This document shows, piece after piece, positions 1,560 through 42,555 of a stretch of 64,000 nucleotides of DNA. Source of the DNA: a virus. The position numbers and the translations under genes were made by a program. How positions within the stretch are numbered: position 1 is the stretch's first letter; each line of letters begins with the position of its first letter. The notes under the pieces were generated by a model. That model had not been told where the DNA came from. It was given only the letters and a program-made list of their open reading frames with translations, and did not search any database. Location: IMG/VR virus record IMGVR_UViG_3300009528_000013, positions 1 to 64,000 of that record. One strand, written 5' to 3'.

Positions 1560-1991
1560 TTAGATTTGATAAACACAAACTTTAATTTTTTCATTCTCCG
1601 GTTTTTCAACTCTCCAACGATGAACTAACAAGGAAGAAATTTGTTGATCGCTTTTGTAAAAAAGCCCTTCAAGAGCATTCTGGATCAGCGTCGCCACGTG
1701 ATCTAAATCCGGGATTGGATTTCCATCCGGGTTCATGAAATTCTCATCGTAGGCTTCGAAGATATTTAGGAGTAGTTCGACTTCTTGATTTCTCGGGACG
1801 GTTTCGAAAGGACTCGAAACAATCTCGGAGATTTTTACCAAAAGACGTTCAGTGAAATTCTTACATTCTGCGGTTAAAATCATTTTCCTGCCGAACGGTT
1901 TCAACTTCCAAGAGACCGCCCGCATCGGAACCTCGAATTCGCAGATTCTTTTCAAAATGATCTCCCTTCTAAAATAATCCTTTTTGGCCAT
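1560..1991 (-). CDS. rusA: RusA-like Holliday junction resolvase
   Basis: PDLDHVATLIQNALEGLFYKSDQQISSL aligns with the RusA signature DLDNxxKxxxDAL...DDxQV; adjacent to helicase. Confidence 0.7.
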   Translation of the reverse strand: MAKKDYFRREIILKRICEFEVPMRAVSWKLKPFGRKMILTAECKNFTERLLVKISEIVSSPFETVPRNQEVELLLNIFEAYDENFMNPDGNPIPDLDHVATLIQNALEGLFYKSDQQISSLLVHRWRVEKPENEKIKVCVYQI

Positions 1992-4566
1992 CGGTGAGAA
2001 GGCGTTGAGGACGCAGAATAACGTCCGAAAATTTCTTCTTAGTTTTCAGAATTGATAAGACGTAAGTATCAATCGAATCCGGAACGACGAAATCGATAAT
2101 TGTGGTCTTCTTCGTTTGGCCGAGGCGATCTATCCTTCCTTCGCATTGATTCCGATCTCCCCAGGAGAAGTTGGATTCCAGGAAAATTGCGACACTCGCC
2201 GCCGTTAAATCAAGTCCAAGATTTACAGTCGAAATCTGTCCGAGAAAAAGCTGTGAAGTCGGATCATCTTGAAATCTCCTGATCTCCGCAGCACGTTTCT
2301 TTCGGACGGCACCGTAAACAACGGACGGATTTAGTTTCTTTTTTGTAGCCCATTCTTGTACTTTCCGTAACGTATGAAGAAATTGAACAAATACCAAAAT
2401 CTTTGTCTCAGTACCCAGTACTTCTCGCTCCATGTAATCGGTGAATGTTTTGAACTTCGATGTGCCGATCTCAGTAGTCACACCATCGCCATTCGTGATA
2501 AAGCCGCTGTTGATCTGATGCAATCGAAGAAGTTGCGTCAAGACATTGGTCGCAACGATTCTTTCGGTCGTGGATAATTGCATCAAGAAATTTTCCTTCA
2601 TCGAATAATACGCCGCGCTTTCGTCTGCGGAAAGCTTAACGGTTCGAGTTTGATAGGTTTTTGGAGGCAGATCAAACAGATCCTTTCGCGGAAAGGTGAT
2701 CCCGGCCGAATAAAGTCTCTTTCGGAAGTGTTCGATATTTCTCGGTCCGATGAAGGCTTTTCCATCATATCCACCGAGCGTTGCATACATTGCTTTGTAA
2801 TCTGCATATCTGGTTCCGAACACAGAAGCATCAAGGAATTTATATTGCGAAAATATGTCAAGGATATTATTTGGAGTCGGAAGCCCGGTCAGGATCAGTT
2901 TATAGGAAGTCCGAGCAAATGCCCGATAGAAAGCCCATGTGAGTTTTATCCCCGGATTTTTGATCTTGGTCGAATTGGAAACGATGATTCCATTTGCAAG
3001 AATATAATTATGGTTATCTTTGACTTCGAGATCATAAACCCGACCCAATCGCTTTTTTGGATTTTTGAGGGGCCGGAAATTCTCGTCTTTGCGGTTCAAT
3101 TTGATTTGCTCGATTGATGGAACTGTCATACTTTCAGTTATAGAAAACTTTCCCTCATAAGGAGTTTTGTAGTCCATACATCGCGGAATGTAAGGCCGGA
3201 TTAAATTGAAAAATCGAGTCTGTGAATCAGCACGAATCGAAATACAAAGTTGATCTTTCCGAACTTTCGATGAAATTGTTTGAATCCCAAATCTATCTCG
3301 AAGCCAAATCTGAAGTTTTCGAACCTCCTGTGGAGAAAAACCTTGAGTATGAAGTTGGACGCGGTACCAAGAATAGATTTTAACTATTCCATTCATCAAT
3401 AGCTGAGTTTTTTTGACTTTGACTCTAGATCCATCATCGAGATACCAGAACGCTAGCGAAACTTCATCGGCTTCATTGAGAAGTTCAATTGGAACTATTT
3501 TTTTTCCGTTTGGGTAAAATAATTTTCTCCAGCTTTTCGAAGTCTCGGTTGGACTTAGAAAAAAGTAATTAGAACGTCCCCAATCATTTTGAGCAGTAGT
3601 TGTCTGATTTGCGAAGACCTGAAACAATTTCCTTTTGAGATCGAAATATTCTTTTTGTTTTTCAGAATGAACAAACCAAATTTGACCTAGAGTTTTGTGA
3701 ATTGAAGCATCTCCTAACATACAGCCAATCAGAACCTTTCTCTGAAAATCGGAAAAATCCGGCATTGCTTTGTAAATCGAATCTCCGATTTGAAGCTTCT
3801 TTGCACTTCGAATCCCTCTGGAAGAAAAGAATTTATGCGAAGCAGTACAGATCACCGAATATGATTTTGATTTATTTCCGAAGTGTAGTTTCACGAAAGC
3901 ATGAAATCTGGGCTTTCGAAAAACTTTTTTTACTGTTTTCAATTCAACTTGTTCAGTTTGAAAATTAAAACTCCGAACAAGATTGCCTGGTTTCAGATTA
4001 GAGATCCGTTTACTACCATCCGAAGTCTGAACCAATGTATCTCCGCTCAGACATTCGTCTGCGATGACCATATCAAACCCTTTTGCCCGAAATCCTTTTT
4101 CATAAATTCTCACACTTTCGTAGTGACAGACCAATATCTCAGGCGGTTCTTTAACCGCAAGAAGGGAACCGATTTTCTCAAGTCGATTCCCCTCCATGAT
4201 TTCGAATTTTAGATCGCTGTGCTTCTCCAACTCGAATTCCCAGGTACTTAGAACAGACAGCGGACAAACAATCAAAGCCCTCTTAACTTGGCCCTGCTCG
4301 ATCCGATACCGAAGAATGTCGATTGCTGCTTTAGTTTTGCCGCTGCCGATCGGCAAGAGTAAAGCTGCGCAGTCTCGTTTCAAACCAAATTTGAACGTAG
4401 CCAATTGGTGAGCAAGCGGCTTCGTATGAAACCAAGATAGGGGGACTGGAAGCCCTCTCGCAAACTCATCGTACCGCAACTCCATCAGGGTCCCTTTGTG
4501 GGCCTTCTGGAAAAGAGAAAGCTGAGTCGGACTTCCTGGCTGATTTTGCATAGAGTGAATCGACAT
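1969..4566 (-). CDS. SNF2-family (SF2) helicase interrupted by a LAGLIDADG intein
   Basis: Walker A PIGSGKT, LIVCPLSV, Walker B IADE[intein]STKIKN, LILTGLP, motif V NLGLDL, motif VI QCEGRIDRLGQ. Confidence 0.92.
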   Translation of the reverse strand: MSIHSMQNQPGSPTQLSLFQKAHKGTLMELRYDEFARGLPVPLSWFHTKPLAHQLATFKFGLKRDCAALLLPIGSGKTKAAIDILRYRIEQGQVKRALIVCPLSVLSTWEFELEKHSDLKFEIMEGNRLEKIGSLLAVKEPPEILVCHYESVRIYEKGFRAKGFDMVIADECLSGDTLVQTSDGSKRISNLKPGNLVRSFNFQTEQVELKTVKKVFRKPRFHAFVKLHFGNKSKSYSVICTASHKFFSSRGIRSAKKLQIGDSIYKAMPDFSDFQRKVLIGCMLGDASIHKTLGQIWFVHSEKQKEYFDLKRKLFQVFANQTTTAQNDWGRSNYFFLSPTETSKSWRKLFYPNGKKIVPIELLNEADEVSLAFWYLDDGSRVKVKKTQLLMNGIVKIYSWYRVQLHTQGFSPQEVRKLQIWLRDRFGIQTISSKVRKDQLCISIRADSQTRFFNLIRPYIPRCMDYKTPYEGKFSITESMTVPSIEQIKLNRKDENFRPLKNPKKRLGRVYDLEVKDNHNYILANGIIVSNSTKIKNPGIKLTWAFYRAFARTSYKLILTGLPTPNNILDIFSQYKFLDASVFGTRYADYKAMYATLGGYDGKAFIGPRNIEHFRKRLYSAGITFPRKDLFDLPPKTYQTRTVKLSADESAAYYSMKENFLMQLSTTERIVATNVLTQLLRLHQINSGFITNGDGVTTEIGTSKFKTFTDYMEREVLGTETKILVFVQFLHTLRKVQEWATKKKLNPSVVYGAVRKKRAAEIRRFQDDPTSQLFLGQISTVNLGLDLTAASVAIFLESNFSWGDRNQCEGRIDRLGQTKKTTIIDFVVPDSIDTYVLSILKTKKKFSDVILRPQRLLTDGQKGLF
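2974..4053 (-). mobile_element. Intein (360 aa) with LAGLIDADG homing endonuclease
   Basis: Starts CLSGDTLV (Cys codon 4051-4053), ends VYDLEVKDNHNYILANGIIVSN followed by Ser +1; two motifs LIGCMLGDASI and LAFWYLDDGS; inserted in Walker B. Confidence 0.93.
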
Positions 4567-15314: not shown

Positions 15315-15585
15315 ACTTCTCTCGTGTCTGGAGTATCTTCTTGCGAATGTTTTCCGGAGTTACATCATCGATTGGCAATATCATCTCACTTTTAACAACA
15401 CCCGCATCATCGCAGAATAAACAAGATCTGGCGATTTGCCGATAACCCCCCGTTGGATTCCCCAATAGACCCCACCGCCCTGCTCTACGATCATTTGACG
15501 TTCGACTTCCTCCTCCATTGGTGTAAGCGCCTCTTTTGCCTCCATCCTTTCCTCTTCCCTTTATCGTTTTGGTTCAGCTATATAG

Positions 15586-15765
15586 CTACACGACAGTCGG
15601 AATCCACTCGTCGTTGTGAATCCGGACGAATGCCACGACACCCTCACAGTGATCGCAGTACATCTCGACCTCAACATAATCTTCGTTGATTCTTTGGATG
15701 TCGAAATTGCTGAAGCTATCGACTCTGGTGTGGCACTTCGGGCAGTATATCTTGATCTTCTCCAT
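15586..15765 (-). CDS. small Zn-ribbon protein (59 aa)
   Basis: Manual translation MEKIKIYCPKCH...YCDHCEG...; below track cutoff. Confidence 0.55.
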   Translation of the reverse strand: MEKIKIYCPKCHTRVDSFSNFDIQRINEDYVEVEMYCDHCEGVVAFVRIHNDEWIPTVV

Positions 15766-15788
15766 GTCTATCCACTTCCTTGTTCTTA

Positions 15789-16466
15789 TTAGCTAATTCT
15801 ACCTATGATCTCTCTCGGAATAATCCACGGCGTTGTATGCGTTCCAGATGGTGCTGAATCTACCCAATATACTTGGATTCCGACATCAAATTTAGCGCGA
15901 TAAAACGAGGCGGCAGAAAGAAGTCTCTCCGCTCTTGCTCGAATATCCATCCAACTCGATAGACTCCGAAGATGACGAGTATTTGAATTAGCAAAGCATG
16001 AGGCAAGAACCCTCCACTTCTGTTCCTTTAAGTCTCCGCACTGGCACCCTAAAAGCGCGACAGGACTTTCATCTGAGTACGCGAGAGGATTTCTACGACG
16101 GAAAGCCCGCAATAAGATTTTGGCATCCGGATCCTCTCCGGCCGAGTACACAAAAATCCCCAGAGAGTCTTCGAATGCCTTGATCCTCTCGTTTAACTGA
16201 TAAATCAGATTACCTCCAATCCGCCGCGGCTCTACCTGATTGAGAAAGATATTGACAGGACTGAGCGATTGAAAGCTATCTTCTCGGACTCGGACAACCT
16301 TGAGGCACTTCTGCATCCTAATCCTCCCACTCGTTAGCCAGCGTTGTGAGTTGTTCCCGGTAATCCTCTTCATCTTGTTCTCTCGATTCCCACAGGTCGA
16401 CATCTCGAAGATTCTCCCAGACTTCATCTCGAACCAAATCCGAGAGTACCGTCGGACCAGCCTCAC
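15789..16466 (-). CDS. hypothetical protein, paralog of 21438..21845
   Basis: C-terminal ~140 aa (GGNLIYQL...FEDSLGIFV...CQCGDLK...LSSWM...TTPWIIPRE) matches the paralog; N-terminal part of the track ORF may not be translated. Confidence 0.6.
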   Translation of the reverse strand: MRLVRRYSRIWFEMKSGRIFEMSTCGNRENKMKRITGNNSQRWLTSGRIRMQKCLKVVRVREDSFQSLSPVNIFLNQVEPRRIGGNLIYQLNERIKAFEDSLGIFVYSAGEDPDAKILLRAFRRRNPLAYSDESPVALLGCQCGDLKEQKWRVLASCFANSNTRHLRSLSSWMDIRARAERLLSAASFYRAKFDVGIQVYWVDSAPSGTHTTPWIIPREIIGRIS

Positions 16467-16471
16467 CCTCG

Positions 16472-16717
16472 TTAATCCTCCGCGATTCGGCCAAGATAGA
16501 ATCCGGGATAACGCTTTTTCTTCTCTTCTCGACTAAGAGGTTTCTGTGATTCTGTATTGCACTCCGGAACAGAAACCCCCGCGTCGTTCATTCTGATTTT
16601 GATCTCTGGTGCGGTGCACATTTCGTCGGAACAAAACTTGCAGTCGAGGTTATCGCATTTTACGATCATCGGCCATACCCTCCTGATCGTCTCTGCCCGG
16701 AACGGGCTGATCTCCAA
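16472..16717 (-). CDS. small Cys-rich protein (DUF1540-like pattern)
   Basis: KCDNLDCKFCSDEMCTAPEIKI; likely start MIVKC. Confidence 0.5.
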   Translation of the reverse strand: MEISPFRAETIRRVWPMIVKCDNLDCKFCSDEMCTAPEIKIRMNDAGVSVPECNTESQKPLSREEKKKRYPGFYLGRIAED

Positions 16718-16767
16718 AAGGTGGTTGTAACTGCTGACAGCCTGCGGCGAGCCAGTAGAGGAACTGC

Positions 16768-16942
16768 GCCAGCCGATTTCTATTCGATGGATCCGCTTCC
16801 AACCAAAAGCTACAGAATTACGGTTGAATCAAAAGAGTTTCAATCCTTGTTTTAATGGATAGGTATCTAAACCAGTCGAATCGTCGGTAACGACTGTGAT
16901 GTTGAGGTTTCAATCCTTGTTTTGATGGATCGGTTCCGATAG
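16768..16942 (-). CRISPR. Mini CRISPR array: 3 repeats (36 nt; middle one intact, outer ones half-degenerate) and 2 spacers (34 and 33 nt); no cas genes in window
   Basis: Minus-strand repeats: 16942-16907 CTATCGGAACCGATCCATCAAAACAAGGATTGAAAC; 16872-16837 GTTTAGATACCTATCCATTAAAACAAGGATTGAAAC; 16803-16768 GTTGGAAGCGGATCCATCGAATAGAAATCGGCTGGC (degenerate). ATTGAAAC 3' end and ATCC/GGAT stem are typical of type I/III repeats. Confidence 0.8.
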
Positions 16943-16956
16943 TTTATCTACCAATT

Positions 16957-17088
16957 CTATCCCCTTTCTTTCGATCCGACCGGTCCTCTCGGAGGCGCAT
17001 CGGGTCGCTTGCAGACGAAGACGAGACCTGCAGTCGCACTGAGAATTATGAAACTCAGAATGATCCCTGTAATCCAACTACCGGACAT
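16957..17088 (-). CDS. small single-pass membrane protein (43 aa)
   Basis: Manual translation MSGSWITGIILSFIILSATAGLVFVCKRPDAPPRGPVGSKERG with GGAG RBS. Confidence 0.6.
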   Translation of the reverse strand: MSGSWITGIILSFIILSATAGLVFVCKRPDAPPRGPVGSKERG

Positions 17089-17098
17089 GGTATTCTCC

Positions 17099-17311
17099 TT
17101 AGAGTTGCCACACGTTTCCGTATCTGACTTTTACGAGTTCCGCACCGAATCCCTTTCGGTTCATCACTGAAGCAACCAGATCAGCTTCGCTCCTTGCCAT
17201 CCTCGTAGCGGCTACCGGGTCGGATGTCAATTCTGGCGTATTGTCCACCCCAGTAAACTTTATGAAGTATCCTGCTCCACTTCTTACGATACGATCCTTC
17301 TTCAGAGTCAT
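17099..17311 (-). CDS. hypothetical protein
   Basis: 70 aa with GGAG RBS. Confidence 0.55.
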   Translation of the reverse strand: MTLKKDRIVRSGAGYFIKFTGVDNTPELTSDPVAATRMARSEADLVASVMNRKGFGAELVKVRYGNVWQL

Positions 17312-17320
17312 AGCATTCTC

Positions 17321-17683
17321 CTACTCCTTATACCGAATAAATTTATAGTACCAATCCCGCTGTCCAGTATCACCGAAGGAAAAAAAGTCAAAGCGCTTAG
17401 CAGTCAACTCAAAGATAGCAACCCTACCGCTCTGCATATCAACTTCGACTTCTTCTCCATCTCCATCCCGCGTACCTCTTCCGATGTTGACGATCTGATC
17501 ACGGAAACAGCAGCGGTGCTCGAAATCAAGATGACTCGTATCAGTCTTTTTTCTTCTCAGCGTACCGATGTTCCTCGCAACGCTGACCCACAGGCTCGAC
17601 AATTTTTTCAAGATAACCCCACTCTCCAGTCTCTTCGTCAATTTCCCATTCGATCCGTATGTACTGAAACGCATATTTTGCAA
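17321..17683 (-). CDS. hypothetical protein
   Basis: Track ORF; real start probably ~80 aa from the C-terminus. Confidence 0.4.
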   Translation of the reverse strand: MQNMRFSTYGSNGKLTKRLESGVILKKLSSLWVSVARNIGTLRRKKTDTSHLDFEHRCCFRDQIVNIGRGTRDGDGEEVEVDMQSGRVAIFELTAKRFDFFSFGDTGQRDWYYKFIRYKE

Positions 17684-17777
17684 GCTTTCCGCATATATTA
17701 CAAGTCAACATCGGGCTCTCTCCTTTGCTTCGCCTGCCAATCCCATTTTTAAATACTTCTTCCAGTAATCCGGCCAA
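17541..17777 (-). CDS. small Zn-binding hypothetical protein
   Basis: CNICG...CEEH; likely start MLTCNIC. Confidence 0.45.
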   Translation of the reverse strand: MAGLLEEVFKNGIGRRSKGESPMLTCNICGKLAKYAFQYIRIEWEIDEETGEWGYLEKIVEPVGQRCEEHRYAEKKKD

Positions 17778-18040
17778 GTCTGCTTGATCTTCCCTGCATT
17801 CTGGGGATCTGCTCTATCGAGAGCTTTCCCCAAGCACTGGACGAAAGAACCCCCGAATTTTATCATAGCAGATGCGACCATAAGGGCTTCTTCAAGATTA
17901 GAGAGACCCACTAGTCCTCTTTCCTTCGGTTTTATGCTCCTCAATACGATCTCATGTGCGTCAAGGATACCAAACGGTTGCCGTTCTTTATCCACTGGAA
18001 CCCGCTCTCCGCTCATCGAATCTCCTTTTGCCTTGAGCAA
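17705..18040 (-). CDS. hypothetical protein
   Basis: FGGSFVQCLGKALDRADPQNAGKIKQTWPDYW is a recurrent small phage-protein pattern. Confidence 0.55.
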   Translation of the reverse strand: MLKAKGDSMSGERVPVDKERQPFGILDAHEIVLRSIKPKERGLVGLSNLEEALMVASAMIKFGGSFVQCLGKALDRADPQNAGKIKQTWPDYWKKYLKMGLAGEAKERARC

Positions 18041-18629
18041 TAATCCTCTTGGCTTTCTCTATCATCTTTTTCCGTTGTTCCCCGGGCAAACCTGCAAAAA
18101 CCGCAGACTCTACCATTTCCTCTAATGCCTCCAACAACTCAGCGATAAGGCAGACATCTGCGCCAAGCTTTTCGTCTTTCCCCTTCTCTCCGATGACCTG
18201 TTGAATTCGTTCCCGCAGAAGAGATCGAATCATCAAGGACCGAGTTGCTTCCGGCGTCTCTTCGGCCATTCGATTTATCTGGTCAATCATCGTTCTGGGC
18301 ATAAACAATGTTATCGATCTTGCTTCAATAATCAAAGGTTCTCCGCCATCCCAAGTTCGATTGCGATAAGGGCTTCCATCTGGATTGACCGTTTTTAGAA
18401 TGACAGAAGGATAAAATTGAGCCATCAATTCTACTTTCGGTCGAATACTGTGAAATGCTTGCTTTGTTCCAACAACTTCATAGAAAATATCTTCGCTCGA
18501 AACATAAAAATCAGGCTGATACGTAGTCGATCCCAGCCGAAATCTCTTAGATTCATATTCCCAGTCCAATCCTTTCGAGTCCAAAAAATCTGCGAAGATT
18601 CTTTCACACGGGAACATCTTCTTCGGCAT
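17988..18629 (-). CDS. PD-(D/E)XK-fold domain (T7 endonuclease I-like) fused to ribbon-helix-helix domain
   Basis: WEYESKRF...YQPDFYV...FYEVVG (canonical Lys replaced by Val); ITLFMPRTMIDQINRMAE...TRSLMIRSLLRE is RHH-like. Confidence 0.65.
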   Translation of the reverse strand: MPKKMFPCERIFADFLDSKGLDWEYESKRFRLGSTTYQPDFYVSSEDIFYEVVGTKQAFHSIRPKVELMAQFYPSVILKTVNPDGSPYRNRTWDGGEPLIIEARSITLFMPRTMIDQINRMAEETPEATRSLMIRSLLRERIQQVIGEKGKDEKLGADVCLIAELLEALEEMVESAVFAGLPGEQRKKMIEKAKRIIAQGKRRFDERRAGSSG

Positions 18630-18885: not shown

Positions 18886-18914
18886 AGTATAACACTTTTT
18901 CAAAGCAAAGTCAA
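18886..18914 (-). promoter_or_regulatory. strong sigma70 promoter
   Basis: Minus strand TTGACT-17 nt-TATACT. Confidence 0.85.
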
Positions 18915-42462: not shown

Positions 42463-42555
42463 CTGTCATTCACACCGCTTCGACACGTTTCACTCGTAGT
42501 ACCTGGGCGGGTTTCGATTTCGCCCTGTCATTCACACCGCTTCGAATACGTTTCA
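42463..42555 (+). repeat. Pair of 30/31-nt direct repeats separated by a 32-nt hairpin-forming spacer
   Basis: CTGTCATTCACACCGCTTCGACACGTTTCA (42463-42492) and CTGTCATTCACACCGCTTCGAATACGTTTCA (42525-42555). Confidence 0.85.

Follow-up and report, generated by a model that had tools for sequence, protein, structure and literature searches.

A leaderless two-spacer CRISPR mini-array with a type I-B-associated repeat in the genome of a tailed phage

INTRODUCTION

What would a phage do with CRISPR repeats and spacers but no Cas proteins, and is such a locus a CRISPR array in the first place? This question is raised by positions 16768–16942 of the window, by which we mean the whole 64-kb stretch of DNA analyzed here, the first part of a linear 117,770-bp virus record in IMG/VR (CheckV completeness of the record: 87%). 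A first-pass annotation, made from the sequence alone, had described the locus as a Cas-less, leaderless two-spacer mini-array embedded in an early operon, with the minimum needed to release two crRNAs and with a repeat that might also identify the host. We find that the locus, hereafter array 1, is a genuine two-spacer CRISPR mini-array read on the minus strand, and that its repeat recurs in a second array of this genome (array 2), which lies outside the window. The reading that we prefer, at a probability of roughly 0.55, is that array 1 lends guide RNAs to the type I-B machinery of the host for use against competing elements. The readings weighed below are not fully mutually exclusive.

RESULTS

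Carrier genome

The record encodes a portal protein, a tail tape-measure protein, an N-acetylmuramoyl-L-alanine amidase, a DNA ligase, several methyltransferases, and a cluster of glycosyltransferases. The portal, tape-measure, and amidase genes identify the virus as a tailed phage, and the amidase suggests that its host is bacterial. The host is probably a bacterium with a type I-B system rather than a Sulfolobales archaeon. Genes on the minus strand, running from ~42 kb down to 1 kb, are non-structural, and the structural genes run rightward from 44 kb. The phage DNA was found in a single sequencing run, which is its probable source (a subsurface metagenome from 2017), and no RNA run was listed among the runs containing this DNA.

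Six-frame searches of the 117.8-kb record returned no Cas6, Cas1, RAMP, or DevR/Cas7, while the control genomes did give matches, and no Cas family appeared among the top Pfam or PADLOC families of 150 ORFs. The description of the locus as Cas-less thus holds for the whole 117.8-kb record. Close relatives of the phage are missing from IMG/VR, as judged from the protein encoded next to array 2, its family alignment, and the probable large terminase. The terminase had no relatives in that database, the array 2 neighbor protein returned nothing, and the family alignment returned only matches at 28–30% identity. A comparison of the 2 kb around array 1 with INPHARED also gave no match. Two long relatives (117.6 kb and 57.7 kb) were detected at the protein level.

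Anatomy of array 1

All parts of array 1 are given here as read on the minus strand. Repeat 1 (R1, 16942–16907) keeps the hairpin and the AUUGAAAC tag in its 3′ 24 nt (16907–16930), which agree with the family core at 23 of 24 positions; the single core mismatch is a T-to-C change, a natural variant that is seen in host arrays too. The 5′ 12 nt of R1 have diverged and match repeat 2 at only 6/12 positions. After spacer 1 (S1, 16906–16873; 34 nt, GC 0.50) comes repeat 2 (R2, 16872–16837), which is complete at 36 nt and has a core identical to that of host arrays (24/24). Spacer 2 (S2, 16836–16804; 33 nt, GC 0.33) then leads into a decayed terminal repeat (R3, 16803–16768), which retains GTT and ATCCAT in its 5′ half but has lost the AUUGAAAC tag and the hairpin's 3′ side. 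The periods of the array are 70 and 69 nt. This anatomy agrees with the first-pass annotation in the position of every repeat and spacer, in the two spacer lengths, and in the state of each repeat (3′ 24 nt kept, middle repeat intact, 5′-side similarity in the last). Spacers in host arrays of this repeat family measure 32–47 nt, with a mode of 35–37 nt, and ~5% of 1119 are 34 nt or shorter; S1 and S2 are thus near canonical length, at the short end of the family range.

Family membership was established with the Rfam model CRISPR-DR7 (RF01320), whose curated gathering score is 37 bits. R2 passes this threshold (minus strand, 16837–16873; 40.8 bits, E 5e-6), and R1 falls slightly below it (minus strand, 16907–16943; 35.9 bits, E 1e-4). 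R3 was not detected by the CRISPR-DR7 model. When R3 was scored at one pre-specified position only, directly after a 33-nt spacer, its 5′ half was better than 99.6–99.9% of random genome windows (empirical P 0.0008–0.004). In a threshold Rfam scan of the whole 117.8-kb genome, three CRISPR-DR7 matches were the sole RNA families found. It is normal for the terminal repeat of a CRISPR array to decay from its 3′ end, and the decayed R3 shows that array 1 is read in the same direction as the surrounding genes.

A Logan contig assembled independently from the source run covers positions 15500–18500 with zero differences, and array 1 is therefore not an assembly artifact or a chimera. The predicted fold of the locus as a whole is unremarkable (z = −1.46).

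Surroundings and transcription of array 1

Upstream of array 1 lies an ORF for a 43-aa hydrophobic protein (16957–17088, minus strand), which has an AAGGAG ribosome-binding site and no family match. Its stop codon (16957–16959) is 14 nt from R1, exactly as annotated earlier, which leaves no room for a leader; array 1 is leaderless. Downstream, a gene for a 65-aa Cys-rich protein (16472–16669, minus strand) has a weak DUF1540 match and an AGGAGG motif 9 nt before its ATG, and its start lies 98 nt past R3. The array is co-oriented with this operon, and its decayed repeat is the distal one. The wider neighborhood belongs to the non-structural arm of the genome and contains weak matches to RHH-type regulators and small unknown ORFs. 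The word "early" in the earlier description of the operon is to be read as a deduction from gene order only.

The nearest strong sigma-70-like promoter candidate (18886–18914, minus strand) lies ~2 kb upstream and reads TTGACT-17-TATACT, a 10/12 match with a TG element. This site is a likely source of the transcript that would carry array 1, although we treat it as a lead only; promoter-like sites are no more numerous in this region than in shuffled sequence. A scan for promoters and terminators beside array 1 found nothing that exceeds shuffles, and within 250 bp the only candidate for a promoter of its own was a 9/12 promoter-like match (17073–17045), which is within chance expectation.

Repeat family and the question of the host

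At least 120 genome contigs, drawn from more than 15 phyla of bacteria and archaea, contain the 24-nt 3′ core of the repeat (the hairpin with the AUUGAAAC tag) in identical form. Its carriers include Spirochaetia, Bacteroidota, Desulfobacterota, Cloacimonadota, Planctomycetota, and Clostridia, as well as Methanosarcinales, ANME-2, Bathyarchaeia, and many others. In these host repeats, the 5′ 13 nt vary freely, and among the matches listed the best agreement of a host repeat with the 5′ part of the phage repeat is 9/13. Because the core is invariant and the 5′ part is free in host arrays, the seemingly truncated R1 keeps everything that the family conserves. The same invariance means that the repeat cannot name the host, and the earlier suggestion that it might do so has to be dropped. 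More generally, this is a caution for host prediction, as the CRISPR-DR7-type repeat family is unusable for host assignment.

Comparing the repeat with host genomes, a check proposed in the first-pass annotation, did connect the family to a CRISPR type. Host arrays with the identical core adjoin type I-B cas7, cas5, cas3, and cas1 in all three loci that were annotated (Methanosalsum, Herbivorax, and Desulfobacteraceae), which establishes the association of the family with type I-B. The processing core of the phage repeat is thus common to type I-B systems across bacteria and archaea.

In type I-B systems with 37-nt repeats, Cas6b yields an 8-nt AUUGAAAC 5′ tag (Richter et al., PMC3479195). Trimming leaves a few nucleotides at the 3′ ends of the crRNAs, and cleavage requires no more than one repeat (PMC3479195). 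Since Cas6b needs only one repeat, R1 and R2 should suffice to form the 5′ ends of two crRNAs. R3 cannot be cut, and crRNA 2 would therefore need trimming, but a dead R3 is no obstacle when 3′ ends are trimmed anyway. Judged by its repeat cores, array 1 retains what two crRNAs with the AUUGAAAC 5′ tag would need, and the earlier claim that it holds the minimum for two such crRNAs with an 8-nt handle agrees with this.

The same core was found in 17 IMG/VR contigs, as a solitary repeat in 15 and as a one-spacer array in two. Both formats of this repeat family are thus in use among viruses. The 15 contigs with solitary repeats are mutually unrelated. In 4 of the 17 viral contigs, the repeat unit sits 10–25 nt before a start codon on the same strand; a rule by which solitary repeats always lie just before a start codon was considered and rejected as not general among the 17.

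As a separate observation, five loci from one study (the GMC samples) share an identical full 37-nt repeat although their bins are assigned to Bacteroidales, Desulfobacterales, and Cloacimonadota, which points to mis-binning of array contigs or else to a very recent transfer.

A second array in the same genome

Array 2 (84310–84419, plus strand) consists of a repeat, a 36-nt spacer, and a repeat, and its two repeats score 37.8 and 50.5 bits with CRISPR-DR7. It starts 6 nt past a stop codon and ends 32 nt before the next start. Its spacer has one match in its own genome, at 84512–84547, within the gene directly downstream (331 aa), where 27/36 nt agree. Read in frame, the spacer encodes KSSYPAVDYIAV, which is identical to the peptide of the adjacent gene at 12/12 residues. 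All nine nucleotide differences between the spacer and the phage's own gene are synonymous, and five of them fall within the first nine positions of the spacer, which is where a type I seed would be. Within this family of phage proteins, no N-terminal motif is better conserved than the KSSYPAVDYIAV peptide. From these sequence relationships, the array 2 spacer appears to derive from a homologue of the phage gene, with the carrier's own copy protected by mismatches. An exact search of IMG/VR with a codon-degenerate form of the spacer returned 0 matches, and no exactly matching genome was found.

A relative from another metagenome (SDBU01002100.1) has array 2 in the same place. Between the two phages, repeat 1 agrees at 37/38 positions, the spacer at 34/36, and repeat 2 at 36/37, whereas the gene beside the array agrees at 221/309 and its third codon positions at 51/97 (53%). 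This difference between the spacer and the third codon positions argues that the spacer has been kept by selection as a specific sequence. Array 2 shows that a guide directed at a conserved motif within a family of phage genes can be retained over long periods as a fixed heirloom. Since the spacer and the mRNA are of the same sense, base pairing would be possible with DNA and impossible with the transcript, as expected for type I rather than type III targeting at array 2.

The two genes flanking array 2 (83212–85447) are paralogues with 31% identity. Their family is GT-A-like, has a DxD motif, and matches Glycos_transf_2 weakly. Metagenomes yielded twelve homologues, and 0/12 carried a Pfam annotation.

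Searches for targets of the array 1 spacers

S1 and S2 have no match in their own genome at up to nine mismatches, nor at the peptide level with up to four substitutions. The search of both spacers against IMG/VR that had been proposed earlier came back empty, with 0 matches in an exact search. BLAST against INPHARED phages and PLSDB plasmids produced chance-level partial matches only (E of at least 0.07). A search of 48 repeat-carrying whole genomes gave no full-length match with up to three mismatches, and nothing beyond chance was found in the host loci that were fetched. In the opposite direction, the phage genome was compared with 1119 spacers from the fetched host arrays and had only chance matches of 12–17 nt, which provide no link to a host.

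DISCUSSION

Guide lending as the preferred reading

We infer a course of events for array 1 that starts with its transcription within the leftward non-structural operon of this ~118-kb tailed phage. Host Cas6b would cut R1 and R2 at 8 nt before the end of each repeat, and two crRNAs starting with AUUGAAAC would be released, with their 3′ ends trimmed by host nucleases. The type I-B Cascade and Cas3 of the host would load these crRNAs and destroy DNA with matching protospacers. S1 and S2 would probably target mobile elements that share the cell, competing relatives among them, and the outcome would be heterotypic superinfection exclusion. As it has no leader, array 1 cannot acquire new spacers, and it would serve as a fixed, inherited weapon.

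The strongest functional evidence for this guide-lending reading comes from array 2 and not from array 1. A spacer that originates from a homologue of a phage gene favors superinfection exclusion, and this spacer is conserved in a relative whose neighboring gene has diverged. Against guide lending by array 1 stand the failure to find a protospacer for S1 or S2 in any of our searches, the position of both spacers at the short end of the family range, and the dependence of crRNA 2 on trimming. The phage is a clean example of a virus equipped with the RNA half of a CRISPR system alone, and this at two sites in its genome.

Alternative readings

Array 1 could instead be an anti-CRISPR RNA, either a Racr-like decoy for Cas6b and Cascade subunits or a Cracr-type silencer of host promoters. 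In the Cracr-type variant, the spacers would pair partly with promoters of host cas or defence genes, and Cascade would repress these genes. As an anti-CRISPR RNA of either kind, array 1 would be expressed early together with other anti-defence genes. The setting of array 1 is compatible with such a role, as the array lies in the non-structural arm, downstream of the strong promoter-like site and of weak RHH-type regulators and among small ORFs. Its degenerate flanking repeats resemble the psi-repeats of Cracr arrays, the core is solitary in 15/17 of the IMG/VR contigs, no viral target of S1 or S2 emerged from our searches, and a crRNA need not have a target to compete for Cas proteins (PMC10651486). 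However, array 1 is not a solitary repeat and lacks a promoter of its own above chance within 250 bp. Its spacers are near canonical length, whereas the tested Cracr array has shortened ones, and full-length matches to S1 or S2 with up to three mismatches are absent from the 48 repeat-carrying genomes. Moreover, array 2 behaves as a sequence-specific guide under selection. On balance, we consider an anti-CRISPR RNA unlikely. Quite unlikely, in our judgment, is a composite of two roles, in which array 1 would be no weapon against rival phages but an early type I-B counter-defence RNA, whose two guides, on a core common to hosts of many phyla, would reprogram Cascade to silence host cas or other defence genes, and Cas6b would also process phage mRNA at both arrays. 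Should the array 1 spacers turn out to match host defence genes, the newly described viral crRNA-like silencers would extend to this type I-B family.

The state of the outer repeats raises the further thought that array 1 is no more than an inert relic: a fragment of a host array, gained by recombination, now decaying, and without function for the phage. R3 is largely destroyed, the 5′ part of R1 is unlike that of R2, and the locus has no leader, no cas gene, and no target that we could find. Yet the decay is uneven, since the cores needed for processing still agree at 24/24 and 23/24 positions, the single deviation being a natural variant; the orientation of the array agrees with that of its operon; and selection maintains array 2, whose repeat is the same, in this genome and in a relative. 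We regard a relic as improbable for these reasons. A still less probable reading makes the repeats themselves the functional part, as sites at which host Cas6b would divide polycistronic phage mRNA, with the spacers secondary. Both arrays do sit in tight intergenic gaps inside operons, and some solitary repeats in other viral contigs lie 10–25 nt before a start codon on the same strand, but this arrangement is not general among the 17 viral contigs, and mRNA cutting leaves the selection on the array 2 spacer unexplained.

Comparison with known arrays

Guide lending by a mini-array is a known viral trick rather than a new principle, and array 1 is a further member of a class that has been described. 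Phage and prophage mini-arrays (Faure et al. 2019, as summarized in PMC6858448 and PMC11656645) are leaderless and often target, in close relatives though not in the carrier itself, the genes that adjoin the array. The arrays of our phage resemble these in having one or two spacers and repeats that belong to a cellular CRISPR family, and in lacking both cas genes and a leader, and array 2 is also alike in that its spacer is aimed at a homologue of the adjacent gene while the phage's own copy is mutated. Array 1 fits the description of a leaderless phage mini-array: it lies in a virus genome, has two spacers where such virus-borne arrays have one or two, and is without cas. A difference from these arrays is that our phage has two, one in each transcription arm. 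The modest extras that the phage adds to the class are two arrays per genome, placement inside an operon without a leader, and long-term retention of a guide.

The Saccharolobus portogloboviruses SPV1 and SPV2 also carry arrays, with promoter-bearing leaders and spacer turnover (Medvedeva et al. 2019, PMC6858448). These arrays are likewise virus-borne and cas-less, with one or two spacers and two array regions per genome, and a further likeness is that targets lie close to the arrays and point differences avoid self-targeting. Unlike SPV1 and SPV2, our phage leaves no room for a leader, and its array 2 spacer is nearly unchanged between diverged phages.

Solitary repeats can act as RNA anti-CRISPRs, known as Racrs (Camara-Wilpert et al. 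2023, PMC10651486). Array 1 shares with them the cas-less mimicry of repeats within a phage genome and would, like them, bind Cas6 and Cascade subunits. However, a Racr is a single repeat with its own promoter and no canonical spacer-repeat arrangement, whereas array 1 has two intact cores and two near-normal spacers, and it does not qualify as a Racr or a solitary repeat unit. In Cracr arrays, which have two or three spacers and imperfect repeats, Cas effectors repress promoters of host cas or toxin genes (Liu et al., bioRxiv 10.1101/2024.10.29.618823), and some such arrays are predicted for type I-B (bioRxiv 10.1101/2024.10.29.618823). Array 1 is similar as a phage array of this size with imperfect repeats, and the poor processing of the last Cracr repeat, with its long 3′ tail, counts as another likeness. 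The spacers of Cracr arrays originate from host CreA/CreR and match promoters of cas or toxin genes in the host; the spacers of array 1, for their part, are not shortened.

With regard to cellular arrays, the repeat length, the hairpin, and the AUUGAAAC tag are like those of the type I-B arrays of Methanococcus maripaludis and Clostridium thermocellum (PMC3479195) and of CRISPR-DR7. Array 1 departs from cellular type I-B arrays in lacking cas genes and a leader and in having only three repeats, one of them complete. With a repeat score and a spacing typical of the family but neither adjacent cas genes nor a leader, it is best called an orphan array.

Other features of the window

At 42463–42545, in the divergent region between the two gene arms, the window contains two perfect 21-nt direct repeats that are 62 nt apart. 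They did not match the Rfam CRISPR families and are probably regulatory. On the minus strand at 1972–4566, a gene for an SNF2-type helicase is split by an intein with a LAGLIDADG homing endonuclease.
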